From: an uncultured Gammaproteobacteria bacterium
Lineage (GTDB): Bacteria; Pseudomonadota; Gammaproteobacteria; Pseudomonadales; UBA5518
Assembly (NCBI GenBank): GCA_903928015.1
Contig: CAIYPF010000143.1
Span: 2,980 to 66,979, forward strand
Length of the DNA: 64,000 nucleotides
Direction of reading: 5' to 3'
In this document: one piece after another, positions 3,866 to 49,795 of the stretch
How positions within the stretch are numbered: the first letter of the stretch is position 1
How the letters are laid out: every line of letters starts with the position of its first letter
Position numbers and translations under genes: made by a program
Notes under the pieces: model-generated
The model's database searches: none
What the model saw: only the letters and a program-made list of their open reading frames with translations
What the model was told of the DNA's origin: nothing

Positions 3866-4912
3866 ATGACCCACGCCGAAGACGCGCCCTACCGAATCGA
3901 ATCCGCGAAAATCCCCGAGCGCTACGCGCGCGGCTGGCATTGCTTGGGTCTCGCGTCGGACTACACCGCAGAACCGCAGATGCTCACGTACTTCGGTACC
4001 CGCCTCGTGGCCTACCGGGGCGAAGACGGGGTCGTCAGGGTCATGGACGCCTTCTGCCCGCACATGGGCGGCAACCTTGCAAAGGGCAAGGTCTGCGGCA
4101 ATTCCATCGTCTGCCCCTTCCATGCATGGAGCTGGGGACCGGATGGCCGCTGCGACCACATCCCCTATGCCAACCGCATTCCGGCCAAGGCTCTCATCAA
4201 GTCCTGGCCCACGATGGAAGAGAACCACCTTCTTTTCGTCTGGAACGATCCCGAGAACCAGCCGCCCATACAGGAACAGCAGCCTCCCCGCGAGGAGCAC
4301 TGCTTCAGCCCGGACTGGTCGGCGTGGCACATCGAGAAGATGACCATCCACACCAACGCGCGCGAACTCGTCGACAACATGGCGGACTGGGCGCACTTCC
4401 CGACCGTGCACGGCGCCGCCTGCACACGCTTCCGCAATATCGTCGAGGGACACAACTACACGCAGGAGTTCTGGGGCTACAGCGAACGCCTTGCCGAAGG
4501 CAGCGAGCTCTTCTCCCGCGCGATCTACCACGGCCCTGCCTACATGCTCACCTACCAGAGCGGCAAGTTCGACGGCGTCGACATGGAGGTACGCCTGCTG
4601 GTGAGCCATGTACCCATCGACACCGAGAGTTTCGACCTGCGCTTCGGCGTGCTGGTGCGCAAGGACCCGAATCTCGACGACGAACAGAACGCTGCCGTGG
4701 TGGCCGGTTATGCCGAGGCAAACCGCTACGCCTTTTTCCAGGACGTCGAGATCTGGCACACCAAGTGCCGCGTCGACAACCCGCTGCTCTGCGATGGTGA
4801 CGGCCCGATCCACAAGCTCAGGCAGTGGTACGCGCAGTTCTATGTGGATCGAGCCGAGGTGCCTGCAGCCTTTGCGGAGCGCAAGGTCTACGACCGCACG
4901 CCGCGCGCCTGA
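3866..4912 (+). CDS. Rieske [2Fe-2S] non-haem-iron oxygenase, KshA (3-ketosteroid 9-alpha-hydroxylase)-like
   Basis: 348-aa ORF. Rieske ligands CPHMGGNL...CPFHAWSW, and an N-terminal RGWHCLG motif typical of KshA-type oxygenases. Confidence 0.8.
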   Translation: MTHAEDAPYRIESAKIPERYARGWHCLGLASDYTAEPQMLTYFGTRLVAYRGEDGVVRVMDAFCPHMGGNLAKGKVCGNSIVCPFHAWSWGPDGRCDHIPYANRIPAKALIKSWPTMEENHLLFVWNDPENQPPIQEQQPPREEHCFSPDWSAWHIEKMTIHTNARELVDNMADWAHFPTVHGAACTRFRNIVEGHNYTQEFWGYSERLAEGSELFSRAIYHGPAYMLTYQSGKFDGVDMEVRLLVSHVPIDTESFDLRFGVLVRKDPNLDDEQNAAVVAGYAEANRYAFFQDVEIWHTKCRVDNPLLCDGDGPIHKLRQWYAQFYVDRAEVPAAFAERKVYDRTPRA

Positions 4913-24114: not shown

Positions 24115-25050
24115 TCAGGCTACGTGGAACTGCGCGGCCCAGCGGCGGAAGCGCGCCACCGGACCATCACCGTCGCAGAGCTGCGGGTGCTCGAGATAGA
24201 TCTTGTTCTCCCAGATCGGGATGTCGTCCGTGAGCTGGCGGTTCACTTCCTTCACGAAGGCCTGGCCGATGCGGTCGATGCGCGGATCACGCGCGGGGTT
24301 GCGATACCAGATGTGGTTGTGCTGCTCGGAGACGTCCGACTCTATGGGCACGTTGGTGGTAACCATGCACATCTCGGCAAGCGTGCGGTAGCGGACGATC
24401 GCATAACCGAATCCGTAGGCATCGGTGCCAAGCGTGCCCTGGACCGGCCCCTGGGAGCCAGGGAACTCCTGCGTGCTGCGCATCGTGAGCGTGGTGCCTT
24501 CGAGCAGGAACTCGTCGTATTCGGCCGGCCCGGGATGGTGGTGGATGGTCTGGAAGTGCGCGGCATCCGCGGTGTTCTCGGCCATTTCCTGCAGGCAGGT
24601 GCTGATGCGATGCCCCTGACTGAAGGGACCCACCCACTCGGGGTCGCTCGCCTCGGGCACCTCGGGAAGCGCATAACGCGGCGCGATGCCATCGGGGTGG
24701 TACCAGGCCATCAACACACCGTGGCGCTCCTGCACCGGGTAGGTGGGAAGACAGGCTTTCTCGTTGAGGCGTTTCGCGTAGTCGATCTCCGCGACCCGAC
24801 CCTCTGCATTGAAGCGCCAGTGGTGGAACGGGCACTCGACCAGATTGCCCTTCACACGCCCGCCCACGCCGATATTCGCGCCGAGGTGGGGGCAATAGGC
24901 GCTCTGCAGATGAGCCACGCCATCCTCTCCGCGCCAGAGGATCAGATCCCTGCCGAAGCAGCGCAGCGGCTTCAGCGCGCCGGGCGCAAGATCCGCGGCG
25001 TATCCCGCATGAAACCAGCCCCAGGGCACAGGAAAGGAATAACGGCTCAC
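24115..25050 (-). CDS. Rieske [2Fe-2S] oxygenase, KshA-like
   Basis: GTG 25050 is preceded by GGAGA and is preferred over the longer ORF start at 25167. Rieske ligands CPHLGANI...CPFHHWRF. Confidence 0.8.
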   Translation of the reverse strand: MSRYSFPVPWGWFHAGYAADLAPGALKPLRCFGRDLILWRGEDGVAHLQSAYCPHLGANIGVGGRVKGNLVECPFHHWRFNAEGRVAEIDYAKRLNEKACLPTYPVQERHGVLMAWYHPDGIAPRYALPEVPEASDPEWVGPFSQGHRISTCLQEMAENTADAAHFQTIHHHPGPAEYDEFLLEGTTLTMRSTQEFPGSQGPVQGTLGTDAYGFGYAIVRYRTLAEMCMVTTNVPIESDVSEQHNHIWYRNPARDPRIDRIGQAFVKEVNRQLTDDIPIWENKIYLEHPQLCDGDGPVARFRRWAAQFHVA

Positions 25051-25066
25051 GGGATGTCTCCTTGTC

Positions 25067-25468
25067 TCAACTGCGCGGGCGGAACACCGGCGCCATGAAA
25101 GCCGCATGTCCCCGCGGATGCAACTCGCGGAAGCACAGCTCGAGCGGCATGCCGCAGCGCAGGGCATTGAAGTCGCACTCGACGATCTGCGTCACCAGAC
25201 GCACGCCGGGCACGGCATCGAGTTCCACCAGCCCGGGTGCATAGATCGGTTCGAAGAGCGGATTGATCGGGCCGCGCACCACGCTGAACGCGTAGAGGCT
25301 CGCATCGCCTGCCACCTCTCTCCAGTCGTAGGCCGTGCCGTCTTCACGCGGATACCAGCATGCTTTGCCGGTGGCAGGATCGAACGGCAATACGAGCCGC
25401 TGCTCACGCGCAGCCGCCCAGAACGGAGCCGTGATCGCATTGGCCGACGCGGGACCGAAATCAGCCAT
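25067..25468 (-). CDS. DUF35 OB-fold protein (thiolase/aldolase partner)
   Basis: 133 aa with the typical DUF35 layout (ITAPFWAAAREQRLVL...; OB-fold tail). Sits directly downstream of a thiolase-like gene, with a 1-nt gap. Confidence 0.7.
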   Translation of the reverse strand: MADFGPASANAITAPFWAAAREQRLVLPFDPATGKACWYPREDGTAYDWREVAGDASLYAFSVVRGPINPLFEPIYAPGLVELDAVPGVRLVTQIVECDFNALRCGMPLELCFRELHPRGHAAFMAPVFRPRS

Positions 25469-25469
25469 C

Positions 25470-26720
25470 TCAGGCCCTCCTCAGGATGAGCGTTGCAGCT
25501 TCATCAGCGGTGAATCCACCGTAGATGCCGACGCGCGCGTCCTGCACCTGGTTGGCCGCCTCGCCCCGCAACTGACGCACCAGCTCCACCACGTGGGCGA
25601 TGCCGAGCACGTAGGCGTGCGACATCAGGCCGCCGTGCGTGTTGCAGGGAATGCCGCCCTGGCTTCGCGGACGATCGAAGTGAAGTCGCTTGTTCTGCAC
25701 GAAGGCACCGCCCTCCCCCTTCGCGCAGAAACCCAGGTCCTCGATCATCATCAGTGCCGTGATCGAGAAGCAGTCGTAGAGTTCAAGCACATCGATGTCG
25801 CGGGCGCTCATATCGGCCATGGCGTAGGCCCAGGGCGCGGCGAAGGTCTGCGGCGTCGCGCTCATCACGCCCTGCTGGCTGATGTAGGGCGCATTGGCAA
25901 TGATGCCGTGGCCGAGGCCCGCAAGCTCCACCACCGGATGCGGCATGTCGCGCGCCAGCTCCGGGGCACTCATCACCCAGGCGGCGGCGCCGTCCGAGAT
26001 CAGGCAGCAGTCTTCCACGCGCAGCGGATCCGTCAGCATGGGCTTGGCGAGGTATTGCTCGAGCGACAGCGTCTTGTGACGCATCACAGCGCCCGGATGG
26101 CCATTGGCGTGACGACGGAAGGCCACGGCGAGTTCGCCCAGCTGTTCTTGCGTGGTGCCGTACTCGTACATGTGCCGGCTCGCCTGCGTGGCCATGTAGA
26201 CGGGCTGCGGATACCAGCCATAGGGCAGCTCGTAGAAGGCTTTCATCGCCTCGCCGGCATGCCAGTCACCGGGCGTGCCGGTACCCGCGGCGCGACGGCT
26301 CGCCCAGTCCACCGAGAAGACGTTCACGATGTGGCGCGCCTTGCGCGAGCGCAGCGCCTCCGCGGCGTACTGCGTGCAGGTGGCGGCCCACACCATGCCG
26401 CCGCCTCGCTCGCTCAGCCACATCTCGTGCGAGGTGCCGAAGTGACGGTGGAAATCCTCCACGCGGATCTGGTCTGCCACATGTGGCGTGTACATCAGGC
26501 CGTCGATGTCGGAGGGCTTCAGGCCCGCATCGGCGATGGCATTGCCGATGGCCTCGAGCGCCATGTCCACGGCCGCGCGCCCGGACGGGCCGCTGAACGC
26601 CGACTCACCGACGCCGGTGATGGCGAGATCCCCGCTGATGTCCGCAATCCCGGCCGAGCGGCCCCAGTCGAAGCGCCCGGCGCGCTGCTGCAGTTGTTCA
26701 ATGCTCTGTCTGGCTGGCAT
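25470..26720 (-). CDS. Thiolase-like (SCP-x / lipid-transfer-protein type) enzyme
   Basis: 416-aa thiolase fold (DCCLISDGAAAWVM, NTHGGLMSHAYVLG). Pairs with the DUF35 gene as in Ltp-type systems. Confidence 0.75.
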   Translation of the reverse strand: MPARQSIEQLQQRAGRFDWGRSAGIADISGDLAITGVGESAFSGPSGRAAVDMALEAIGNAIADAGLKPSDIDGLMYTPHVADQIRVEDFHRHFGTSHEMWLSERGGGMVWAATCTQYAAEALRSRKARHIVNVFSVDWASRRAAGTGTPGDWHAGEAMKAFYELPYGWYPQPVYMATQASRHMYEYGTTQEQLGELAVAFRRHANGHPGAVMRHKTLSLEQYLAKPMLTDPLRVEDCCLISDGAAAWVMSAPELARDMPHPVVELAGLGHGIIANAPYISQQGVMSATPQTFAAPWAYAMADMSARDIDVLELYDCFSITALMMIEDLGFCAKGEGGAFVQNKRLHFDRPRSQGGIPCNTHGGLMSHAYVLGIAHVVELVRQLRGEAANQVQDARVGIYGGFTADEAATLILRRA

Positions 26721-26822
26721 GGACGGATTCCCCCCTTGCGGGGATCATCGCGGCCAGACCAATTGCAGTAAACGGTTTTGATGCGGAAACTGGGCCGCGT
26801 GAACTGATGGCAATCTCCCCGC

Positions 26823-26870
26823 CCCCGGCAACCCGGCAACCCGGCAACCCGGCAACCCGGCAACCCGGCA
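26823..26870. repeat. Octanucleotide tandem repeat (ACCCGGCA) x5 perfect, plus one flanking copy with one mismatch
   Basis: Read directly: perfect copies at 26831-38, 39-46, 47-54, 55-62 and 63-70, preceded by CCCCGGCA at 26823-30. Intergenic, between divergent genes starting at 26720 (-) and 26931 (+). Confidence 0.95.
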
Positions 26871-26930
26871 TCAATACATACCCCTGACGGGCCGGGGCGC
26901 ACGCACCGCAGCTTGAGGCATCAAAAGACC

Positions 26931-27989
26931 ATGCATGTACTGATCACCGGCGCGAGCGGGCTCGTTGGCGCGCATGCAGCGGGCGCGATCCTTCGGGACG
27001 GCAGCCACACCGTGCGCGTGCTTGCCCGGGATCCGCAGCGCGTGCTTTCGGCCATCGCCCCCTTGGGTGTCGAGTGCAACAGCATCGAGATCGCCACAGG
27101 GGACGTCACGGATGCGGCGCAGGTGGCCGAGGCCATGCGCGGGGTCGATGCCGTGATCCACGCCGCGGGCCTGTTTTCGCACGATCCTGCCGACACCGCG
27201 AAGATGCAGCTCAGCAATGTGCTTGGTACGCGTTGCGTGCTGGGAGCCGCCGTCGCTGCCGGCGCCGACCCGATCATCCATGTGTCGAGCTATCTCGCCT
27301 TGTTCCCGCCCCGCGGGGCCGTGCAGCGCGCCTCGGATCCCGTCACTGCCCCGCGCAGCGTCTACGCCCGCACCAAGGCCGAGGCGGAAAGCATCGCCCG
27401 CGAACTGCAGGAGAGCGGCGCGCCCGTCGTGACCGTGTACCCGGGCGCGATCCACGGCCCCGACGACCCCAGCTTCGGCGCGAGTCCCGCCTATCTGGCA
27501 GAGTCGCTGCGCAAGCGGAGCATGCTGGTGAACCGCGGCGGGCGCGGCTACAACGATGTGCGCGACCTTGCCCGGCTTCTGCTGCTCCTGCTGTCTCCGG
27601 GGCTTGGTCCGCGCAGGATGATGTGCGGCGGGCTCTACACAAGCGACAGCGATATCCACGCCCTGCTGTGCCAGCTGACGGGCAATGCGATCAGCGCGGT
27701 ACGCCTGCCGGGCTGGTTGCTGAGGGCGATGGGCCGGACGGGAGACATCGCTGCAGCGCTGACGGGAGGCACCGCGGCGCTCAGCTACGAGGCCGCATGC
27801 GTGCTCACACGCAGCGTGCCCTGCGACGACACCGCCGCACTGGCATTGCTTGGCCGGCCCTGGATGCCCATCGGGCAATCCCTGTGCGATCTGCTGGTCT
27901 GGATGCGTCGTGCCGGCCACCTCTCGGCAGAAGATGCGGGCCCCGCCATCTGCGCACTGGCGGCAGAAAACCGCACGGACGGACGATGA
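26931..27989 (+). CDS. NAD-dependent epimerase/dehydratase-family (extended SDR) protein
   Basis: ATG 26931 (MHVLITGASGLVGAHAAG), with TTG 26913 as an alternative. Contains YARTK (YxxxK). Its stop overlaps the next ATG (ATGA). Confidence 0.8.
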   Translation: MHVLITGASGLVGAHAAGAILRDGSHTVRVLARDPQRVLSAIAPLGVECNSIEIATGDVTDAAQVAEAMRGVDAVIHAAGLFSHDPADTAKMQLSNVLGTRCVLGAAVAAGADPIIHVSSYLALFPPRGAVQRASDPVTAPRSVYARTKAEAESIARELQESGAPVVTVYPGAIHGPDDPSFGASPAYLAESLRKRSMLVNRGGRGYNDVRDLARLLLLLLSPGLGPRRMMCGGLYTSDSDIHALLCQLTGNAISAVRLPGWLLRAMGRTGDIAAALTGGTAALSYEAACVLTRSVPCDDTAALALLGRPWMPIGQSLCDLLVWMRRAGHLSAEDAGPAICALAAENRTDGR

Positions 27990-28468
27990 ATCATCCCGCC
28001 GCTTCAGGCCGCCAGCGTCTCCGGATGACGGCCCTGCTGCTTGCAGGCGCGCTGCTCTGCGCTGCCTGCCCGGATAGCAAGGCGCCCGGCTCCGACATCA
28101 GCGCTGCGGTCAAAGAGCGCCGCGACAACTTCCGCCGCATGGGCGATGCGTACAAGGCCATCAAGGAAAGCATCGAGAGCGGCAAGCCCGACGCGGCGCT
28201 GGTCGTACGCAGCGCGAGGCTGATCCGCGACACCGGAGCGGGTCAGCCGGCGCTCTTCACCCCGGGCAGCGGAGCCGGTTCGGGTGCGAAAACCCGGGCG
28301 CGCGATGCGGTATGGACGGAGGCAGCGTTGTTCGCGCGCCGGCAGGACGAATTCCTTGCCACAAGCGACGCGCTGATCGCCGCCGCGCCCGCCGACATGA
28401 GCGAGGGCTACGAGGCGCTGACGCAGGCCTGCCTGGCGTGCCACGAGCATTTCCGCGAGCGCCGCTGA
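27986..28468 (+). CDS. Cytochrome c' (class II c-type cytochrome), exported
   Basis: Only the last 160 aa of ORF 27074-28468 look real. N-terminal signal MTALLLAGALLCAAC, a helical body, and a CLACH haem-binding motif near the C-terminus, as in cytochromes c'. Confidence 0.7.
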   Translation: MNHPAASGRQRLRMTALLLAGALLCAACPDSKAPGSDISAAVKERRDNFRRMGDAYKAIKESIESGKPDAALVVRSARLIRDTGAGQPALFTPGSGAGSGAKTRARDAVWTEAALFARRQDEFLATSDALIAAAPADMSEGYEALTQACLACHEHFRERR

Positions 28469-29359: not shown

Positions 29360-29740
29360 ATGAGCGAGAGCCTGCGCGACAAGGGCATCGAGATGTTCAA
29401 CACCGTCTACTGCGGAGACCTCCCGCAGCCACCGCCCCCGGGGCAGGACAAGTTCTTCGATTTCATGCTGGAGGGGGTCTTCGGCAAGCTCTGGGCCGAT
29501 ACCACGCTGTCCATGCGGGACCGCCGGCTCGTGCTGCTCGGCGCCATTGCCGCGCAAGGCGAGGACATGACCTGGACCATACAGGCGCGCTCGGCGATGA
29601 AGCGCGGCGAGCTGAACCAGCAGGAACTGGAGGAGATCATCATTTTCCTCACGCAGTACGTGGGCTACCCGCGCGCATCCAAAATGCGCATGGCGCTGAT
29701 CGGCCTGCTGGCGCAGCAAGCACAACAGAAGTCCACCTGA
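29360..29740 (+). CDS. Carboxymuconolactone-decarboxylase (CMD/AhpD-like) family protein
   Basis: ATG 29360 with GGAG 9 nt upstream. LSMRDRRLVLLGAIAAQG...ELEEIIIFLTQYVGYPRA is typical of CMD-family proteins. Confidence 0.7.
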   Translation: MSESLRDKGIEMFNTVYCGDLPQPPPPGQDKFFDFMLEGVFGKLWADTTLSMRDRRLVLLGAIAAQGEDMTWTIQARSAMKRGELNQQELEEIIIFLTQYVGYPRASKMRMALIGLLAQQAQQKST

Positions 29741-29753
29741 GGCGGCGCCGGAC

Positions 29754-30785
29754 ATGGATCAGCCGACACACTGGCAGCGCATCGAACTCACAGCCTTCGG
29801 CGGCCCCGGGATGCTGCGCGTGGTGGAAGAGACCACGCTGCCGCAGCCCGGCCCCGGACAGATCCGCGTGCGGGTGCTGGCTGCAGGCACGGGCTTCACC
29901 GACACCATCATCCGGCTGGGGCAGTATCCGGGCGTGAAGCAGAAACCGCCCTTCACGCCGGGCTATGACTGGTTCGGTGTGGTGGATGCACTGGGCACGG
30001 GTGTAACGGGCCTCGCCTTGGGCGATGCCGTGGCCGACATGCCGGTGATCGGCGGTTACACGCAATACCTTTGCGTCGACGCCGCGCGCGTGCAGCGCTG
30101 CCCGGCAGGGCTGGACCCTGCCGAGGCGGTGAGCATGATTCTTTCCTACACCACTGCCTGGCAGATGCTGAAACGTGAGTGCCGGCTCCAGCGCGGCGAC
30201 TGGATCCTGGTGCACGCCGCGGGCGGCGCCGTAGGAAGCGCGCTGCTCGATCTGGCGAAACACCTGGGGCTTCGCGTGATCGGTACGGCCTCTGCGGCAA
30301 AGCACCCCTTGCTCAAACGCTACGGCGCCGAGCCCATCGACTATCGCTCGGAGGATTTCGTCTCGCGCACGCTGCAGATATCCGGCGGCGGCGTGAAGGC
30401 CGTCTTCGACACCATCGGCGGTGCCAACTGGAGCCGCTCCTACCGCTGCCTTGCGCGCGGCGGAACGCTGGTCGGCTTCGGCGCGCTGCAGGCGAAGGAC
30501 GGCACGGAGAGCATTCCCTCGCTCCTGTGGGGCTTCGCGAAACTGCTCGCGCTGTGGAAGCTGCTGCCCGACGGCAAGCACAGCTGCTTCTACAACATCC
30601 AGACGCGTCGCGAGGCCAAGCCCGCTGAATTCCATGAGGATCTGGGAGACCTCATGCAGATGCTCGCAGCAGACCAACTCCGCCCGGCCGTGGCAGAGCG
30701 CGTGCCGCTGGCGCAGGCGGCCGAGGTGCACCGTCGCATCGATGCCGCCGGGATAGCCGGGAAGGTTGTGCTGATCTGCGAGTGA
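29754..30785 (+). CDS. Medium-chain (zinc-type/quinone-oxidoreductase-like) dehydrogenase/reductase
   Basis: 343 aa. GQIRVRVLAAGTGFTD..., PFTPGYDWFGVV, and cofactor motif ILVHAAGGAVGSALLDLAK. Confidence 0.85.
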   Translation: MDQPTHWQRIELTAFGGPGMLRVVEETTLPQPGPGQIRVRVLAAGTGFTDTIIRLGQYPGVKQKPPFTPGYDWFGVVDALGTGVTGLALGDAVADMPVIGGYTQYLCVDAARVQRCPAGLDPAEAVSMILSYTTAWQMLKRECRLQRGDWILVHAAGGAVGSALLDLAKHLGLRVIGTASAAKHPLLKRYGAEPIDYRSEDFVSRTLQISGGGVKAVFDTIGGANWSRSYRCLARGGTLVGFGALQAKDGTESIPSLLWGFAKLLALWKLLPDGKHSCFYNIQTRREAKPAEFHEDLGDLMQMLAADQLRPAVAERVPLAQAAEVHRRIDAAGIAGKVVLICE

Positions 30786-30836
30786 ACCCCGCACCCGGGT
30801 GCTGCCGCAAAACGCGCGGTGACGCCCGGGACACAC

Positions 30837-33800
30837 TCAGCCCCCCACGCCACCCACGCTGCGCTCGACGAAGGCCACTACCGACTCCTTGCTGAAACCC
30901 CAGACCTCGCCCGAAATCATGCGACTGGAACGAATCAGGTCAGCAAGCGGCACAGCGCCGCCACCGCCACTCGATGCCCCATAGACCTGCTTGACGGTGC
31001 TGGCCGCCGCCGCGCGCCAATCCAGCGGGACATAGCTGCGCTGGCTGTTGTGCCGATCGGCATAGGTGGTGTCGACGGGCACGAACGTCGGCTTCGGTTG
31101 GTAGTTCTTTTCACTTGAAAAGGAGTTGGCCTGGTACAGGCCAGTAAAACCCCGACGGATGTCTTCGTCACTGCGCACCGTGATGGAAGCAGCTGCAGCC
31201 GCAACAGCGACGATGGGCAACGCAAGAAAACCAAGCGGGATAACCGCCAGTGCGGCCGCGCTGAGACCCGCAACTGCGCCAACTTCTTTCAGTCGATCAG
31301 AACTTCGGGGAGTGAAAACACTATTCAACGCCGGGGCGCTCTTGCCCAAAACAGCCAGACCGAGACCGGTCGTGGATATCGCGTCAAGGCCTAGCCGCTT
31401 CCGCCGACCCGATGAGCTGTTCCCTCTACCGGCGCTGGCAGAAAACTGCCCCTGATCCTGCCTTTGCACGCCGGGCGCGAAGTTGATTCCGAAGTTGAAA
31501 ACTGAGTCGAGATTATCGACGACGAGCGCCCCATACCTGACAGCCTTACCAGAGCCTTCATTGGCCGCCGCCTTGCCTAAGCGCTCAAGCGGGTCGAAGA
31601 CTTTGCCCAGCCCACGCTCAAGCGAATCGACTGCTTTGGCAGACCTGCTCAGAGGCTTCCGAACGTCGTCGGCGATTCCCCCTGTGGGGAGGATATCGGC
31701 ACCGAACGCCACATCCAGAGCGTTCTGGAACCCGCCATCCGACGCCATGACTGAATCAGAGGAGATTACATCGTCTATACCAGCCGAAGAACCTGACGCT
31801 CTACGGACACTGCTCGAAAGGTCATCTGACAACTCCGTGAGATCATCCACTTTCCCTGCAATCTTCTTGGCATTGAGAGCAACCTCGTCGGCCTCACCGG
31901 CCACCGCCTTCGCTGAGCCCACCACATCACCCAATGCACCCAAAAGCCCACCACCAAACGCAACAGCAAGCATGTTCGGGTTGACGATACGGCCGTCGTT
32001 CTGGATTGCCTGATTGGCTGCCTCGCCGGCGACTTCCAGCGCGGTTTGCGCCACAACGTTAGCCAACTTGAGAAGGGAGGTCGCCTTGCCGGCAACGGCA
32101 ACCGCCTGACCGATGCCGGCAGCAATACCGCCAATAGCACCGGCGACCACATCCGCCGCAACGGCCTTCCAGTCGAACTCTTTCTGCAATTCGAAGCCGA
32201 CCAGAATTCCCTGCGTAATGGCCGAAGCAGCAAAGGCGATGGCTGCCGCCACAACTGTGGTTGCTACAACCGCTCCGATAACCGCTCCCGCAGTCAAAGC
32301 CGTGCCCGCTGCAGCGACCGGAGCGAGTGCGCCCGCCGAAACAACCGTAAGAAGAGCCGCGGCAATTGCCACGACCACAATCAGGATGATGGCAAACGCC
32401 AGTTTGACCTTGGCGCAAGGATCCGGCGCCGGCTGGGGAATGGCAGGAAGTTTTGAGCCGATCAACGTGCTCTCGTTGTAGAGCGCATGGGTACGGCTTG
32501 TGCGGTACGCGTCCTGCGCAGTGACCGGAATCACCAGACGTGAACCTGCTTTCAGCGCAGATGTGCCGCCAAGGCCGTTGGCCTCGGCAATCGCGAACCA
32601 GAGCTCTGGCGATCCGTAGTACTGCCCCGCAATGGACTCCAGCGTATCCCCGGCCTGCACCGTGTGCTGGGAGATCGACGGACCATCCGGGAACGCGGGA
32701 TCGAAATTCAAGCCTGTGCCGATGGTGTTGTGCTCGACCGCATAGTCGCCGTTGGCGGACTGCAGGGGGCGCCCGTCACCGTCCAGATCCGGAGTACGCA
32801 AACCAGAGGTAAGCAGCATCTTTGCCGTCTCGGCGACTGCCCCGACCACACCGGTCGCGATATTCACCGTTCCATCAATAATGAAATTACCTACGTAGGG
32901 ACCCTGTTGGTCTGCATAGTCGCCGACCGGATTCCCCAATGCGTAGAGATAGAAATATCGCTTTACGGTGATATAGCCCGCTGTCCCGTTGTCAGGGCGG
33001 GTTTCGTACCTGAGTAGCAGATGGCCCTCGTTGTCGTAGGAGTAGCTGATGTCACGACCGAACTCCAGCGGGTCGCTGCTACCACGACTGTTCACAAGGA
33101 GACGGCCGTTTGAATCGTAGATATAGGACGCGGTTGCGCTTCCCGTCGGCGCCGCGACGGACGTTGCGCGATTCTTGCCGTAGAAATCGTAGAAATAGCC
33201 GTAGGTGGTAATACTCCCGTCAGTGGTTATCCGCGTTTGCGAAACACGGCCGGACCGGTCGGCAGTGGTTTCGGTGGTCTGAACCGTATGTGACTGCGTG
33301 CACTTGACGGTTTTATAGACCCGGTAACTGGCGTCGTAGGAGTTAGTCTCGGTATCCCACTGGTACCACGTGTTGGTCTGATACTTCAGCCCCGGCCCCC
33401 AGTAAAAATGCTCGCGCTGCGTGATATTGCCAGCCTTGTCGTAGACCCAGAGCGATTGGGAAATTTGCCACAGCGTGCTGTAGCCCGTGCCATAGCCCTG
33501 TGCCGCTGCTTGCGCGCCGGTCAGCGTGGGGTACTGGTTCCAGGAACCGTCTGCGACTGAACTCGGCGGCTTCGATTTGAACAGACGGGTAAACGTTACC
33601 GCACCATTCTTGTTGTAAGAGTAGAACCGCACATAGCCGCTCTCCGTCACCTCTTCCTTGAAGCGGTTGCCTGCATAGTCGTAAGAGAAATTGAATGTGA
33701 TGTCGTCTGTGGTGTCTTGCGTTGCCTTCCAGGCATCGTCATTTTTCAGCTTCGTCAGTCGATTGGCTGCGTCATATTCGTACGTTGTTACTTTTTTCCC

Positions 33801-36800
33801 GGCAGCGCTTGTCTGAGTGATTTGCTTGAGGTTTCCGTCCTTGTAATAGAAGTATTCCGCAGAAATGGAAATATCTTGTGTGCCTGCCTTTACTGAGGGG
33901 AAATGCGTCCAGGACTTGAGGACTCCGTTCGCGTAGTAGCTGTAATTGACGGCTCGCTCGAGCAACCAACCCCTATCCCAGGATTTGTAGTTGAAGCGCT
34001 CGTACACACGGTTGCCGGCCACGTCATATCTGTACTCCGTATACGACTCGTTTCTCCCCTGTAGCATCCGGGTGATGGCGCTGTGGTATCCGGTGTCATC
34101 AATGCGGATGACACGTCCGGCGTTGTCGTAAGCGGTCTTGATATCCTTGCCCCTGATCACCGTTTTTTTGCCGGTAGCGGGGATGTTTCCGTCGTAGTGC
34201 GCAGGCCCGGTCTCCGACACACGGCGCCCGAATTTGTCATATCCGTAAACGGTGATGGTCTCGACGGGCACACTGCCGCTGGCGGTATTCACCAGGCGCT
34301 TCTGACTGCCAAGGAATACGTCGACGCCACCGGTACCGGCACTCGAGAACGGGATCGCCGCTCCGCCGACCGTCGCCGACAGCGTGAATGTGCCGGTCGC
34401 ACTCACACTTTTCACGAAATAAGACTGTCCAGCCACGAGACCCGTCGGCAGCGTGCCCACCCCGCTGTCCGGTGTTCCGCCCAGACTTCTGAAAAAAAGC
34501 TCCTGCCCGACGTCGAAAACGGGACGCACGGAGAAGGTGCCGCTACCGACAGACGCGGATGTCAGCAAGGCCCCACCGGGCGTCTCGGAAATTCGGAAGC
34601 TGTCATAACGGCCATCGGAGCTATTGAAGATGTTCGCAACGTAATACGTTCTCCCCGCCACGATACCCGTTGGCAAGGTCCCGCCGCTGCTCACGCTGAA
34701 TGTCACTTTCTGACCCTCGGTCAGCCCGTGTGAGGACACATTCCAACTCAGGAAACCGCCAAAACCCGGCTGAGCCGCATCAGTGATGGATGCCGTCGTG
34801 GTCTTGGAGCAGTTGAGCTCCAGAAGACCGTTCACGCCGCTGGCCGTCGCGTTTTCCGTGACCGGCACGATCTGGCTGGAGGTGTAGAAGTCATTGCCAA
34901 GCACCAGCGGCACGCTCACGCTCAGCAGGCGCCCGAAGGGGCCGTACTCGAAACACTGCGTTCGCCCTTCGGCATCGGTGACCGTGGACTTGTTGCCGTA
35001 GGTGTCGTATCGGGTCTGCTGCACTATCGCGCTGCAAACCAGAAAAATCCCAGAGCCTTGGCCATTGGCTCCGAAGCTGATCTCCGACCCATCGGGCGAA
35101 GCGGAGATCGTAAAGGTGTTGGTCGTGACGGTCTTGATGTAATAGGCCTTACCGGCCACAAGCCCCGCGGGCAGAGTGCCTGCCGTCGAGAACGAAATCA
35201 GCTGCCCTGTCTTAAACCCGTGCCCGGTCCTGGTTAACGTCAGAACGGTGGTGGCGCTCGTCTTTGTGTTGGCGGTTACGGCCGGCCACGTCGCGGGTAG
35301 CTTGTCGAAACTGTACTCGGCGATAACGCGCCCTTGTTTGTCGTAGTCACGCCCGAAGAAGTTGCCGTTGGCGTCTTTGATAACGATCTGGTTGTCGCGG
35401 TGGTCGCACCGGTATTGCGTGGTGTTTCCCTCGCCATCGGTGGAGGTCACCATCCGGCCGCGCTGGTCGTAGGTGCTCGCTGAGGAGGTTGGCGTAACGG
35501 TGAGGGTGGCGGTAGGGTACGCAGCCCCGAGGGACAGCGCGGCCCCGCCGGGCGTCAGCGCAAGAGAGAACCGGTCCTTGTCTGCAACCCTGACAACATA
35601 GTAGGTCGTCCCCGCTACGAGATTTGCTGGCAGAGTCCCGGAGCTGCTCGCGCCGAATATCACCGCCTGCCCTTCGGACAGACCGTGATTCAAAAAGTAG
35701 AGAGTCAAGGAGTCTGACCACACACCGACTCTGCTTGAGCCCTTGGCGGTGCCGGTGCGACGACCGAAGGCATCGTAGCCGTAGCTCTCGGTCGTGGTGC
35801 TTTCGAGGCCCAGGAAGTAGCTGCTGATCAGGCGGTTCGCATTCCCACCTGAATAGGCATACACGAAGACACGGGTGTGCCCCTCACCATCAATCGTCTG
35901 GATACGATTGCCCAGACGGTCGTAGCTGTGAACGGTGATGGCGCCGAGGGCATCGGTTTCGCTGACCAGATTTCCCGCACCGTCACGGACGAACAGTCGG
36001 GCTTGGGACGCGAGGTTACCCGGATCCCGGATGCTGCACTCGCGCCCGGCATAGTCATAGCCCCATACGGTGAGTGCCCCTTTGGCCCCCCCTCCAAGGA
36101 CCGCAGCAAAAGGACCCAACTCCTCGGTTTTGCGCCCGAGTTTGTCAAAGCGGGCATAGCTTGTGATCGGGGAGGCATTTGTTCGGTCCAGGCCCCTCAG
36201 CGTTGTGACCACGGCGTTGCCGAGTCTGTCCACCGCGAATTCACGCCACAAGCCCTCTTCCTCGTTGGAGGCTGTCTTCATCCCCATATCGTTGTATTCG
36301 GTCTCGATGAAGTACCTCGCCTGCTTGCGCGGGACCCCTAGCCGGGCGAGCACTGTGACTGTGACTTGCAAGTTCGGATTCCGCGTTTTGGAGCATTTCA
36401 GCTCTCTCGACCAGGACAACTTGCCAGTCTGGAGATTCATCACCATGACGCGGAAATAAAACGTGCTGCCGTCCGGCAGAGTGTTGATCGGGATGCTGCC
36501 CGATGTTGCTGTTCCAGCGGGGGTTGCGGAAGCGTAGGAACCCTTGTCGCCGGGATTCAGCATGGATTCAACGTTGAAGGACTCCAGTTGCGAAGTGGCC
36601 CCCCATACGATCCAGGATCTGAGATCACCCGATGTCTGGCTTGCCGGATAAGTCCATGAGACATTCGCCGCGATCCCGGAACTGTAGCCGGCAATATCAA
36701 GGTTGGAGGGATAGGGCAGCGGATAGCCAGCGTCCTCCATGTAGGAGCGCACAACCTGACCACGCACGTTGTATTCCTGGAACGCGGCGGTTCCTGTCGG

Positions 36801-45101: not shown

Positions 45102-45509
45102 GGGATTCTCCTTGCCCTGTACTGGTAAACCGCTCCTGCGGTGGCGTTCTTATGGCAATCCGCAATCAGTGTTCAGATGCCTGCTAGCGGCGACCCTAGC
45201 ATCCCGTATGCGCAGATACAGTACCCCCAAGGGCAGATCGGCATCCTTTTCGGAGGGATTTTTCCACGCACCACGCCGCAGTGGGACTTCAATGAAACCC
45301 GCTTTTTTACGTGGCTTTTCGAGGTGTTCCGACGAAGCGGACGGTTTCAATCGTGCGGACTGATCGAAGTGTCTTAAGTGCTGTTCACTTTGACAGCTTT
45401 TGCCCACGAGCCTGCGCAATCTGGCAATTACCCGCACTCCAGGCAAGGCTTGAGGGGTGAGCGATGAGCCAGGGCGCCGAACGCCGGCGCGGTCTGCCTG
45501 CAGTTGCCA

Positions 45510-47213
45510 TCAGATCCGCGATGCGGTGCAGGCGTGGTTCGCCGCCACGAAGCCAAAGGTCATCGACGGGCCCAGGGTCGCACCTGCTCCGGGGTAATAC
45601 CGACCCATCGCCGAGGCCGAGCAGTTGCCGATCGCATAGAGCCCCGGAATCACCTTGCCGTCGGTATCGAGTGCGCAAGCATCGGCATTCGTGAGGATCC
45701 CGCCCTTTGTTCCGATATCCCCGGGATGTACCTGCACCGCGTAGAACGGCGCTTCGGCGATGCTCGCCAGACACGGATTCGGGCCCAAGCGCACATCGCC
45801 GTACATCAGGTCGTAGCTGTTCTCGCCGCGGTGGAAGTCTTCGTCCGTGCCGCTCTGCGCAAAACCGTTGAAGCGCGCCACCGTGGCCGACAGCGCTTGC
45901 GCATCCAGACCGAGCTTTGCGGCCAGGGCCTGCAAGGTAGGCGCGCTCTGCAGGAACTGCTTGCGCACGCGAGCGGGTTGCAGCCAATCGAGGTGCATGC
46001 CGCCTGGCAGCAGGGGCCCGAAGGGATAGTTGCGCCGGTAGCGTGCGTCGAAGATCGCCCAGGCAGGAAGGTTGGGCGTGCCGCCATCATCTGCCGTGTA
46101 CATCGCCTGCACCGCCGTGGTGTAAGCCACGGACTCGTTGAAGAACCTGCGCGCCGCACGGTTCACCATGATGCAGCCCGGCATGGAGCGCTCGGTGAAG
46201 AGCATGCGTGCGCGGTCTTCGCCCTCCATCACGATGGTCGGCCCCCACCAGGCCTCGTCCATCAGGTGCAGCGCGGCGCCGATGCGCTCGGCGGCGAGGT
46301 GCAGATCGCCCGTGTTGGTGGGGCTGGCAGCAGACCAGGTGCTCTGCGTGGGTGCCGGCAAAAAGCGCTCGCGCATCGCCTGGCTGTGCTCGAAGCCTCC
46401 GGTGCCGACGATCACACCCTTGCGGGCCATGAGGCGGAACTGCTGCCCGCCGTTCTCGGCCACCACGCCGGTCACGCGCTCTCCCTCCCGGATCAGTTCA
46501 CGCACGGGAGTGGACAGGCGCAAGGGAACTCCGCGATCGAGCAATGAGCGACGCAGCCGGGCCATCAGCGCATTGCCCATGGTGAGCCGGCGCGAGCGTT
46601 TGGAGCGCAGGCGCCAGCCGATGTCGCTCGCATATTCCAGCGCGAGCTTGGCAACCACCTTCAACCAACCCGGCGCCTTGCTGAGCAGCACCGCTCCCTC
46701 GAGGTTGGTGTAGCCCATCAGCCCCATCACCGTGGTCTGCACGTGCGAGGGCTGCATATCAAGGAACACATCGCCAAGAGCCCGTGCGTCATAGGCCAAC
46801 GGGTCGATGGATCGCCCGCCGGGGCGAGCGCCCGGGAGTTCCTGATAGTAGTCCGCGTAGTGGAGCATCGCCTCGTAGCGCACGTGGCTGTTTTCTTCGA
46901 GGAAACGCAGCATGCGCGGCCCCTGATCCACGAAGGCTTCCACCACGGCGGGGTCAACATCGCCGTCGGTGAGGGCGCGCAGGTAACGGAGCGCATCCTC
47001 GCGGTTGTCCTCGACACCCCCTGCAAGCATCAGGTGGTTAAGCGGAATCCACAGGCCTCCGCCGGAACTTGCCGATGTGCCGCCAAAGCGGGCGGCTTTC
47101 TCGAGGACGACCACGCTGTCGCCGTTTGCGGCTGCGGTGAGCGCAGCGGTGAGGGCGCCGGCACCGGAGCCCACAACGATGATGTCGACGGTCTCGGAGA
47201 TGGCGTCAGACAT
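45510..47213 (-). CDS. FAD-dependent 3-oxosteroid 1-dehydrogenase (KstD)-like flavoprotein
   Basis: ATG 47213 (MSDAISETVDIIVVGSGAGALTAALTAAANGDSVVVLEKAARFGGTSASSGGGLWIP), which is the characteristic KstD-family N-terminus. Confidence 0.8.
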   Translation of the reverse strand: MSDAISETVDIIVVGSGAGALTAALTAAANGDSVVVLEKAARFGGTSASSGGGLWIPLNHLMLAGGVEDNREDALRYLRALTDGDVDPAVVEAFVDQGPRMLRFLEENSHVRYEAMLHYADYYQELPGARPGGRSIDPLAYDARALGDVFLDMQPSHVQTTVMGLMGYTNLEGAVLLSKAPGWLKVVAKLALEYASDIGWRLRSKRSRRLTMGNALMARLRRSLLDRGVPLRLSTPVRELIREGERVTGVVAENGGQQFRLMARKGVIVGTGGFEHSQAMRERFLPAPTQSTWSAASPTNTGDLHLAAERIGAALHLMDEAWWGPTIVMEGEDRARMLFTERSMPGCIMVNRAARRFFNESVAYTTAVQAMYTADDGGTPNLPAWAIFDARYRRNYPFGPLLPGGMHLDWLQPARVRKQFLQSAPTLQALAAKLGLDAQALSATVARFNGFAQSGTDEDFHRGENSYDLMYGDVRLGPNPCLASIAEAPFYAVQVHPGDIGTKGGILTNADACALDTDGKVIPGLYAIGNCSASAMGRYYPGAGATLGPSMTFGFVAANHACTASRI

Positions 47214-48821: not shown

Positions 48822-48853
48822 GCCGATAGGGACAGTCACAGGAGAAACAAGGC

Positions 48854-49702
48854 ATGCAGGATCTGGCTGGCAAGGTGGCGGTCATCACGGGTGGCGCGAG
48901 CGGCATCGGCTTTGCGCTGGCAACGGCTCTTTCCGGCGAAGGCATGCAGGTAGTGCTAGCCGATATAGAACACGCAGCGCTGGATGCAGCGGTGCAGGGA
49001 CTGCAGGCCGGCGGGGCAACGGTCAGCGGGCAGATCTGCGATGTATCGGACGCCGCGTCGGTGGAGGCCCTCGCCGAGGCGGTGTACGCACGGCACGGCG
49101 CAACGCATCTGCTCTGCAACAACGCGGGCGTCTTCACCGGCGGCCTGTGCTGGGAAGCGAGCGAGGCAGACTACCGCTGGGTGCTCGGCGTGAACCTCGG
49201 GGGTGTAGTGAACGGCATTCGCGCCTTCGTACCCCGCATGATCGCGGGCGGTGCGCAGGGGCATGTGCTGAACGTCGCGTCGATGGCCGGCCTGACGGCC
49301 ACGCCCTTCGCGGGTGTCTATCACACGAGCAAGCATGCGGTGGTGGGCCTCTCGGAGTGCCTGTTCCACGACCTCTCGCTGCAGGCACCGCAGATCGGCG
49401 TCTCGCTGATCTGCCCCGAAATGATACGCACGGGCATCGGCCACTCGGATCGCAACCGGCCCGCGAGCCTGAGCGCAACGGGGGATGTTCCGCAGACCGA
49501 TGCGCGTCACTTTGTGGAAGAGACGATCAAGCAGGCCGCACTGGCCGGGCTCGATCCCGCCGTGATCGCGCAACGCAGCGTGAAAGCCATCCGCGAGAAC
49601 CGCTTCTACGTGCTCGCGGAGGACAGCTGGATGGACCTCGCCCGCGGACGCATGGACGACATCCTCATGGGGCGCAACCCCGTGCTGCGGGCGCCGGGCT
49701 GA
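48854..49702 (+). CDS. Short-chain dehydrogenase/reductase (SDR)
   Basis: 282 aa. VAVITGGASGIGFAL, NNAGV and YHTSK motifs. Confidence 0.85.
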   Translation: MQDLAGKVAVITGGASGIGFALATALSGEGMQVVLADIEHAALDAAVQGLQAGGATVSGQICDVSDAASVEALAEAVYARHGATHLLCNNAGVFTGGLCWEASEADYRWVLGVNLGGVVNGIRAFVPRMIAGGAQGHVLNVASMAGLTATPFAGVYHTSKHAVVGLSECLFHDLSLQAPQIGVSLICPEMIRTGIGHSDRNRPASLSATGDVPQTDARHFVEETIKQAALAGLDPAVIAQRSVKAIRENRFYVLAEDSWMDLARGRMDDILMGRNPVLRAPG

Positions 49703-49795
49703 GGCTCCTTAACACACTGTCACGCGCGCCTCGTTGTAGCGCAGGAACACCGGGCCCTAGACTCCGGTGGCCGCCACTTCGCCCCGGACATATCC

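Follow-up and report, generated by a model that had tools for sequence, protein, structure and literature searches.

The question raised by this locus is what a YD/RHS-repeat protein of 4754 amino acids (aa) does, and how it leaves the cell when it carries none of the delivery domains known from proteins of its class. It is encoded in a 64-kb stretch of DNA (64,000 nucleotides, hereafter the window) from an uncultured member of the Gammaproteobacteria, by an uninterrupted minus-strand open reading frame (ORF) at window positions 30837..45101 (stop codon 30837-30839) that starts with ATG and specifies a product of 511.5 kDa. We conclude that this giant is an oversized relative of the Rhs-type polymorphic toxins without a known delivery domain, and one member of a large unstudied family whose neighbourhood with flagellar-type export genes suggests a new way of delivering Rhs toxins. 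Our preferred reading, to which we attach moderate confidence, is that the giant is an encapsulating toxin-delivery shell for large membrane-active cargo, exported presumably by a flagellar-type type III secretion system (T3SS).

An original prediction made from the window itself had described the reading frame with its length and ATG start, a size several-fold above any structurally characterised Rhs, Tc or teneurin shell, an N-terminus without a Sec/Tat-like signal and the absence of PAAR, LXG, TPS and SpvB/TcB domains, and all of this stands: Pfam and NCBIfam scans matched none of these domains, nor the Rhs core TIGR03696, and residues 1-1100 alone superpose on a complete Rhs cocoon from a type VI secretion system (T6SS). 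The predicted ~4000 near-continuous YD residues were right in kind and too generous in extent, the YD-type residues amounting to roughly 3600 aa (38 RHS_repeat stretches in Pfam, 29 YD_repeat stretches in NCBIfam) broken by two helical inserts, an FN3-like segment and four beta-barrel modules. Neither homology nor structure searches returned a well-described family with a known delivery domain. The giant belongs to the broad class of Rhs/YD-repeat shells by its PF05593/TIGR01643 repeats and cocoon-like model, and falls outside the canonical Rhs toxin definition, with no TIGR03696 core and no DPxGL...DPxGL autoprotease found by Pfam or NCBIfam. Missed by the earlier account were a DUF6531 domain (aa 39-114), a LysM domain (aa 4146-4192), a hydrophobic module (aa 4225-4400) and a further hydrophobic stretch (aa 4606-4645); the C-terminal LysM, membrane module and tail probably define the role of the protein.

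The chain opens with a Gly-rich, family-specific leader (MTILIGGAPTGLLDSSQTLLGRNDQT...; aa 1-38, 44988..45101, on the minus strand as are all segments of the giant) that is conserved in the family and predicted to be disordered, with a pLDDT of ~23 for residues 1-33 in AlphaFold2 (AF2). Conserved despite its predicted disorder, this leader is a candidate export signal, compatible with a type III secretion signal. The DUF6531 domain, the N-terminal plug-type domain of Rhs proteins (44760..44987), has a confident AF2 model and matches PF20148 at 29.7 bits against a cut-off of 24.1 when the segment is scanned alone. After the last repeat follows a family-conserved junction (aa 4064-4135, YLYALGNPVGDYADQQG ... 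NFDPAFP; 32697..32912), in which only an NPV...D..G remnant is kept and the DPxGL...DPxGL aspartyl-protease motif is absent family-wide. The peptidoglycan-binding LysM domain (32526..32666; PF01476, E=2.6e-7 within the full-length sequence, 1.8e-8 when scanned alone), with core residues invariant in the family, is followed by a conserved Y..G..P..P..C linker (from aa 4193 to 4224, with its Cys at 4229) and the hydrophobic module (together aa 4193-4400, 31902..32525), which bears an (S/T)QG...LQxxFDWK motif. The module proper is Ala/Gly/Val-rich with about five long helices and a grand average of hydropathy of 1.19; an invariant cysteine, Cys4229, lies just ahead of its first helix and, speculatively, could be a processing site for cargo release. 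The entire part after the last repeat (LysM, five-helix module and tail) amounts to ~70 kDa.

These elements delimit a family, which we define by the leader with DUF6531, a YD-repeat tract exceeding 3000 aa, the junction, LysM, the Cys-linker and the hydrophobic FDWK module; the window protein has all of them in alignable form. A search with its last 715 aa gave only three matches in 5.8 billion proteins, all with LysM, the same hydrophobic module with (E/K)FDWK and then differing tails, one of them ADP-ribosyltransferase-like with an R-S-E signature (P0001). Scanning one genome per species with an alignment of the module yielded at least 279 confirmed relatives, all from Proteobacteria plus Anaeromyxobacter, and the protein is thus not an isolated oddity; the best match to the window copy among these species-representative genomes was 55% identical. 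The host ORF was open through the full 10 kb upstream of the module at 34 of 78 fetched loci (at least 3333 aa before the module, 18-63 YD motifs), eight complete family ORFs measured 3195-3980 aa, and family proteins range in size from 3.2 to 5.2 thousand aa. The closest relatives are tandem giants of 5142 and 5239 aa, 219 nt apart, in Halieaceae bacterium GM1-29 (GCA_033283265.1; L091:10001..35429), the longer of which is collinear with the window protein from leader to C-terminal domain. The leader and DUF6531 are common to the N-termini of family members, and within the subclade of the window protein the leader is strikingly conserved, with the consensus M[AT]xxIGGxxTGLLDSSLxLLNRNDRT. The giants were located by DNA-level scans and exhaustive HMMER search; a word-indexed protein search returned no match above ~1750 aa although giants exist in the same collections, so that absence there is uninformative, and a metagenome scan with a 4-sequence N-terminal alignment returned only 4 short loci. 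Literature searches on giant Rhs proteins, on Rhs with LysM and transmembrane segments, on DUF6531 and on Rhs with flagellar or T3SS genes found nothing describing this architecture or linkage. Conserved stand-alone leader plus DUF6531 remnants of 126-291 aa were also seen on many contigs (L082-L084, with the gene at 10001..10603 in L082; L099:10001..11338), including Chromobacterium violaceum, and are probably relics of deleted giants.

The tails of the family are those of polymorphic toxins, in which variable C-terminal toxin domains are borne on a conserved scaffold (Zhang et al. 2012, PMC3482391). In 66 relatives, the C-terminal 300 aa matched 15 different Pfam families, mostly toxin domains: GH-E, Tox-REase-5, CDI EC869-like, colicin/pyocin DNase, RES, EndoU and Ntox46, as well as Tox-URI2, NS_2 endonuclease, VgrG3-C-like, GH108 and PT-HINT (the last in two relatives only), to which ADP-ribosyltransferase-like and WHH-like tails are added. 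A small same-strand ORF directly follows the stop codon at 64 of 75 family loci, extra module copies occur at 10 loci, and arrays of orphan cassettes were found at L001 and L031. On the 2-Mb contig L001, one of the three matches to the last 715 aa lies just downstream of a 4652-aa RHS giant, whose C-terminus consists of LysM, the module and an HNH-like tail of the WHH type. Next to this giant is a 110-aa ORF, after which come three orphan cassettes, each with a different tail and a small ORF (L001:9604..17846). A main gene with orphan cassettes is the classical Rhs layout. These cassettes restart before LysM or before the last YD repeats, and some lack the LysM-hydrophobic module; since the restart points before the toxin differ, the module itself is exchangeable. 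On the strength of the varying toxin tails, the extra modules and the small downstream ORFs, we classify the giants as a widespread proteobacterial family of polymorphic toxins. Directly after the Sphingopyxis giant lies a 464-aa protein (L016:10879..12270) with no Pfam or NCBIfam match and a 50%-identical homologue after another giant (L079:13042..13491), which may be a further conserved partner.

Near the window gene and in the annotated family contexts we found no VgrG, PAAR, TcA, TpsB or lysis genes. Upstream of the Halieaceae giants are genes for FlgD, FlgE, FliM/N, FliP, a regulator, a 207-aa protein (p207) and two TPR proteins, and two unrelated contigs of long-read metagenome-assembled genomes (MAGs) carry FliQ/FlhA/TPR and FlhA/FliR/FliQ/regulator/TPR genes, respectively, upstream of their giants. 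This linkage was surveyed by tblastn of the Halieaceae and MAG neighbour proteins against all fetched loci, representing 72 module-anchored genomes or contigs. Flagellar-type T3SS genes lay within 10 kb of the giant in 12 of the 72, and additionally at L095; TPR-A, TPR-B or p207 did so in 14, and the union of the two sets comprised 17, including all three closest relatives of the window protein. The value of 17 out of 72 is a lower bound, as usually ~8 kb on one side was visible. Linked members belong to the Alpha- (Novosphingobium, Sphingopyxis, Sphingomonas, Vitreimonas), Beta- (Rhizobacter, Variovorax, uncultured Burkholderiales) and Gammaproteobacteria. Flagellar genes make up ~1-2% of a genome by our estimate, which places linkage at 17-24% of family loci far above chance.

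Pfam and NCBIfam confirm the linked FlhB, FlhA (E down to 1e-223), FliP, FliN/FliM-like, FlgE and FliA-like sigma factor proteins. The linked FliP passes the flagellar equivalog cut-off, FlhA reaches 694 bits against a cut-off of 772, and FlhB scores slightly better as SctU than as FlhB, with both scores below cut-off; judged by these matches, the linked T3SS set is flagellar-type but divergent. TPR-A shows generic TPR similarity only, including sub-threshold matches to the T3SS chaperones SctY and LcrH/SycD. At the Rhizobacter locus an IS200-like (Y1_Tnp) transposase gene (L027:13172..14245) separates the giant from its genes for TPR, a FliA-like sigma factor and FliP.

The original prediction had left the giant without an export route; at the family level the linkage with flagellar-type T3SS and TPR genes now narrows it to a concrete lead. 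In DUF6531-Rhs cousins of 1300-1750 aa, the place of the giants' leader is taken by a Sec signal peptide or another N-terminal region. The flagellar T3SS exports non-flagellar proteins in a manner dependent on an N-terminal signal (PMC2764114). Export of an unfolded chain by a flagellar-type T3SS would fit this precedent, since the leader is conserved, predicted to be disordered and placed where the cousins carry their Sec signals.

For the shell, residues 1-1100 were modelled with AF2 from a 66-sequence alignment, giving a pLDDT of 86 and a pTM of 0.77. Foldseek placed RhsA (7q97) first (TM-score 0.62/0.65 over ~1050 target residues, E=7e-51), followed by 8qja, Tse5, Tse15 and then the teneurins and TcB-TcC. 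Because the model superposes on complete T6SS Rhs cocoons, these residues would form about one classical cocoon of wall with a similar curvature. Beyond residue ~1100 lie ~2500 further repeat residues, making the wall ~3.5 times the usual length. AF2 curls any YD stretch of ~1100 aa in a cocoon-like manner, and counting shells from 1200-aa windows was therefore rejected as indecisive.

Under the delivery-shell reading, the chain would be made without a Sec signal and exported unfolded, guided by its disordered leader. The divergent flagellar-type T3SS, with the two TPR proteins as chaperones, would be the likeliest route because such genes are recurrently linked to family members; for the window copy, the T3SS and TPR genes would need to lie in another part of the genome. 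Once exported, the YD wall may fold to an elongated cocoon shielding hydrophobic cargo, as Tse5 does on a small scale. Rhs cavities of ~32,000-35,000 cubic angstroms house cargo of 15-16 kDa, and the Tse5 shell chaperones an integral-membrane toxin (PMC10684867). By our own estimate, a ~3.5-fold wall at constant diameter would scale in volume roughly to a cargo of ~70 kDa, ~4 times the usual. The tail-fibre-like barrels of the window protein would then bind the target surface; in the target periplasm LysM would bind peptidoglycan and the hydrophobic module would insert into the inner membrane, where it would either carry the tail across or act itself as a toxic pore. A stronger version, which we regard as possible and rather doubtful, holds that the giants are dedicated substrates of a flagellum-derived T3SS with its own TPR chaperone pair, that the LysM-hydrophobic module is a self-contained device for crossing the inner membrane, and that the window gene is a mobile cargo-only copy using a system encoded elsewhere.

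A number of observations weigh against a T3SS-exported shell. By tblastn there are no T3SS or TPR genes in the 64-kb window, where the giant arrived alone; at around three quarters of the family loci the single flank in view contains none of these neighbours, and the contexts L081, L097 and L099 contain no T3SS or TPR genes. Hot-spot insertion or co-regulation at ordinary flagellar loci could explain the linkage equally well, and T3SS export of the giants is proposed from gene neighbourhood and leader. Likewise, encapsulation of the 70-kDa C-terminal part is deduced from size only, the models allow either one long cocoon or several lobes for the wall, and the AF2 model of aa 3800-4400, based on 4 sequences, had a pLDDT of 43, which made it unusable as a fold and left secondary structure alone to be taken from it. 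No autoproteolytic motif that could free the cargo was found, and one assembly (ERZ1426856) calls the gene in two pieces of 937 and 3741 aa. The C-terminal tail of the window giant has no match in Pfam, NCBIfam or PHROG. An exhaustive HMMER search found its last ~80-110 residues in only 11 proteins among 1.84 billion representatives, always at the extreme C-terminus; these include both Halieaceae giants, to which the window tail is 41-47% identical. The His of an RQH motif conserved in the tail homologues is not conserved in the window protein, and no immunity gene lies beside the window giant or after either Halieaceae gene. With a tail conserved in the subclade and no immunity gene, effector activity of the window copy is the least certain step.

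This conserved rather than polymorphic tail and the missing immunity genes also favour the best-surviving alternative, in which the giant here is an envelope-anchored surface protein, an adhesin or protective coat that displays the decorated YD wall and is held by its C-terminal hydrophobic helices and by LysM bound to peptidoglycan of the producing cell. LysM followed by transmembrane helices is a typical envelope-anchor layout, the decorations (barrels and an FN3-like insert) are of a binding type, and teneurins show that YD shells can serve adhesion. We nevertheless consider this unlikely: relatives have this LysM-hydrophobic module ahead of genuine nucleases, RES and ADP-ribosyltransferase-like toxins, together with orphan cassettes; it sits exactly where Rhs proteins hold their encapsulated cargo; and for an N-out topology 4200 residues would have to pass the inner membrane with no Sec signal to guide them.

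An outsized T6SS cargo effector, loaded like classical Rhs effectors on a VgrG spike encoded elsewhere, would suit three points: the nearest solved structures without exception belong to Rhs effectors of the T6SS, T6SS Rhs proteins often contain DUF6531, and orphan effectors can sit away from T6SS clusters. This too is improbable. The giant lacks PAAR, prePAAR and MIX, any clade domain that binds VgrG, and the Rhs core; neither the window nor the annotated family contexts contain vgrG, hcp or tss; its 511 kDa are about three times the known T6SS Rhs cargo; and the family has an N-terminal leader of its own. Slightly less probable again is a self-contained Tc-like toxin against eukaryotes (grazers or hosts), freed by lysis or vesicles, in which the module replaces the TcA channel; a eukaryotic target would explain the missing immunity gene, and the relation of the fold to TcB-TcC and teneurins, the protein's own membrane-insertion module and the accessory-island status of the gene agree with it. 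It is opposed by the absence of TcA, SpvB and beta-propeller domains and of any lysis cassette nearby, by LysM, which points to a target containing peptidoglycan, and by the antibacterial-type toxins with small downstream ORFs in the relatives. The defining features of a canonical Rhs toxin, a T6SS cargo and a Tc BC component were each looked for and found wanting, and these assignments were rejected or down-weighted.

An artefact of assembly, or a pseudogene in decay, is a very improbable account of the ORF. In its favour are a sequence that is repetitive at the protein level, the split gene call in ERZ1426856 and the fragmented copies of relatives in long-read MAGs. Fragmentation in long-read MAGs is typical of indel errors, independent assemblies repeat the covered 3' frame with single-nucleotide polymorphisms (SNPs) only, none of the DNA repeats exceeds 64 nt or 83% identity, collinearity with the 5239-aa homologue from an isolate genome extends over the whole protein, and the AF2 model of residues 1-1100 is of high confidence.

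The assembly evidence comes from two contigs of independent samples, a 202-kb ENA contig (L085; ERZ27313280 k141_1468576) and a Logan contig (L086), which match the window at 99.9% identity but are distinct from it. The former covers the 3' ~9.9 kb of the ORF with 5 SNPs (3 of them synonymous) and 0 indels, and its called gene has the same length of 4754 aa; the latter covers the 3' ~4.0 kb with 3 SNPs and 0 indels. DNA repeats within the ORF measure 32-64 nt at 60-83% identity, and the neighbouring zinc alcohol dehydrogenase (Zn-ADH) protein is found unchanged on further public contigs, L085 and L086 among them. An exact look-up of the 4754-aa protein gave no record. The giant ORF is real: matching independent assemblies over the 3' part and the shortness of the DNA repeats answer the concern about repeat-driven mis-assembly or frameshifts raised by the original prediction, and it is set aside for most of the gene.

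The DNA upstream of the start codon reads AAGGAGAATCCCATG; the GGAGA motif said to lie 6 nt before the ATG is present, at 5 nt, with GGAG at 6 nt. The start is also backed by the N-terminal alignment with family members such as P0124 (MTILIGGAPTGLLDSSQPLL). Upstream of the ATG, within the gene's island, lies a 408-nt 5' non-coding region (45102..45509, minus strand) with the ribosome-binding site AAGGAGA just before the ATG. A sigma-70 consensus promoter was not detected there, and scanning both ends of the island for promoters and terminators gave nothing above chance. An antisense shadow ORF of 987 aa runs inside the giant gene at window 42165..45128 (plus strand); long antisense shadow ORFs are typical of high-GC DNA.

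The remaining anatomy of the giant is dominated by its main YD/RHS beta-hairpin block (aa 115-2795, 36717..44759), with helical inserts at ~370-415 and 926-974. It is followed by a non-YD, beta-rich insert (aa 2796-2940, 36282..36716) that is FN3-like by eye only, has no internal-repeat similarity and no Pfam, NCBIfam or PHROG match, and is common only to the second Halieaceae giant (33% identity). Further on, four beta-barrel modules of ~75 aa (GTLPxGLVAGxxYYV) are set between YD repeats (aa 3125-3605, 34287..35729). They resemble phage tail-fibre and baseplate proteins, matching PHROG families of these (phrog_967, E=4.4e-12; phrog_9370, E=1.2e-10) and, in Pfam, E1_FCCH (E=1.8e-6) and End_beta_barrel (E=0.015); they are private to the lineage of the window gene, and a PDB sequence search with this region matched only the flanking YD repeats. 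A last, degenerate YD segment (aa 3606-4063, 32913..34286) shows beta-hairpins to about aa 4063 in a low-confidence model. Beyond the hydrophobic module, a low-complexity linker with the second hydrophobic stretch (aa 4401-4667, 31101..31901) has no Pfam match and is poorly conserved in the Halieaceae homologues, and the chain ends in a C-terminal domain of ~87 aa (aa 4668-4754, 30840..31100) with the consensus TYADxHxRQHxYLxLxW...SNRMVSGEV...FAExSVGGVGG.

The gene was acquired as a single-gene island. The strain-specific segment of 14,752 nt (30776..45527) contains only the giant gene and its 5' region, with no integrase or transposase ORF inside it, and is absent from four syntenic contigs of 85-89% nucleotide identity (L087-L090), in which the ADH gene is followed after 67 nt by that of an FAD oxidoreductase. 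GC content is 57-64% within the island against 66-68% in the flanks. The GC content at third codon positions (GC3) of the giant is a host-like 80-84% over codons 1-2000 and 64-70% over codons 2501-4754, a drop that suggests a mosaic history in which the 3' third (inserts, junction, module and tail) is maybe of different and more recent origin. The giant had been called the only non-metabolic gene locally, and the genes from ~18.3 to 55.3 kb are indeed all metabolic or regulatory by Pfam.

The convergent Zn-ADH gene starts 51 nt after the stop codon of the giant. A 395-aa ORF abutting this stop (29649..30836, minus strand) was considered as an immunity gene and rejected as a shadow frame antisense to the Pfam-supported ADH; its GC content at first codon positions (81%) exceeds its GC3 (69%), it has no Pfam match and it is not open in relatives. 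Elsewhere in the window, a strain-specific insertion of ~1.3 kb at 26780..28082, with an NAD-dependent epimerase/dehydratase gene (ORF 26931..27989, plus strand), is present in L085 and absent from L087-L090, and a 16-nt intergenic indel at 26824..26839 (tandem CCCGGCAA CCCGGCAA) separates the window from the near-identical L085. Another strain-specific segment of ~885 nt (48822..49706), replacing ~27 nt in relatives, holds a short-chain dehydrogenase ORF (48854..49702, plus strand; adh_short, E=9e-43). Conserved in relatives is a minus-strand set at 24115..26720 encoding a KshA-like Rieske oxygenase, a ChsH2-type OB-fold protein and a thiolase-like protein, a trio that resembles those of steroid or aromatic side-chain catabolism.

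Cocoons of the Rhs, Tc and teneurin type serve as the model of packaging and delivery of a dangerous protein by cells, and to our knowledge all those studied comprise ~1000-2100 residues and ride known machines (T6SS, TcA or Sec). In many Alpha-, Beta- and Gammaproteobacteria the family described here builds the same fold 3-5 times as large, has neither the known delivery domains nor the canonical autoprotease, and places a conserved peptidoglycan-binding and predicted membrane-inserting module between shell and toxin. If the linkage reflects export, it would connect the fields of flagellar/type III export and polymorphic toxins, so far unlinked, would explain the orphan status of thousands of annotated RHS-repeat giants, and would offer a tractable system (cultured Variovorax, Novosphingobium, Sphingomonas, Trinickia, Massilia and Burkholderia) for the export of half-megadalton proteins and the scaling of cocoon size with cargo. 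Cultured carriers include Variovorax boronicumulans CC172, Novosphingobium fuchskuhlense FNE08-7, Sphingomonas formosensis CC-Nfb-2, Trinickia fusca 7MK8-2 and Halieaceae GM1-29. Independently of the T3SS link, the LysM-hydrophobic pre-toxin module offers a candidate explanation for the passage of encapsulated Rhs toxins into the target cytoplasm.

Among known systems, the T6SS Rhs effectors (RhsA 7q97, Tse5 8cp6, Tse15 8uxt, Rhs1 7pq5) are structurally closest, sharing the YD beta-cocoon, an N-terminal plug region and cargo C-terminal to the shell (Foldseek E ~1e-51). The giant differs from them in having no PAAR or VgrG-binding domain, Rhs core, DPxGL protease or vgrG linkage, and in its ~3.5-fold wall, putative cargo of ~70 rather than ~15 kDa, LysM-hydrophobic pre-toxin module and family-specific disordered leader. 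Teneurins and the bacterial teneurin-like 9ifo likewise combine a YD shell with extra domains (E from 1e-37 to 1e-30); EGF, NHL, ABD and Tox-GHH domains are lacking in the giant, and the teneurin transmembrane anchor is N-terminal whereas the giant's hydrophobic module is C-terminal. The TcB-TcC cocoon is a large YD shell around an unfolded toxin (structural match E ~1e-27), from which the giant departs by the absence of an SpvB/TcB N-terminal domain, a beta-propeller gate, a TcA partner and an aspartyl protease, and by its metabolic neighbours.

Non-flagellar proteins exported by the flagellar T3SS, such as Campylobacter Cia, provide the likeness of N-terminal-directed export without a Sec signal (PMC2764114), and members of the giant family adjoin FlhA, FlhB, FliPQR, FliN and FlgE genes. 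Substrates of the Cia type are small, however, and the link of the giants is one of gene neighbourhood only, absent from the window. We know of no Rhs protein, and of nothing near 500 kDa, that uses the flagellar T3SS route. In CdiA, pre-toxin or cytoplasm-entry domains between scaffold and variable toxin are thought to mediate passage of the target inner membrane, and orphan toxin/immunity cassettes lie downstream. The giant has no sequence similarity to CdiA and no TpsB partner, FHA repeats or VENN motif, and the resemblance would be one of function only, in the conserved module between delivery scaffold and variable toxin and in the orphan cassettes. The Sec-dependent DUF6531-Rhs/WapA-type toxins of 1300-1750 aa, finally, are about one third of the giant's size and have a Sec signal or other N-terminus and, by their source names, a canonical Rhs core; they share with it a DUF6531 domain ahead of the YD repeats, at 26-31% identity across 85-96% of its residues 1-1000, and, with the family, polymorphic C-terminal toxins, and are likewise exported unfolded, presumably folding outside the cytoplasm.

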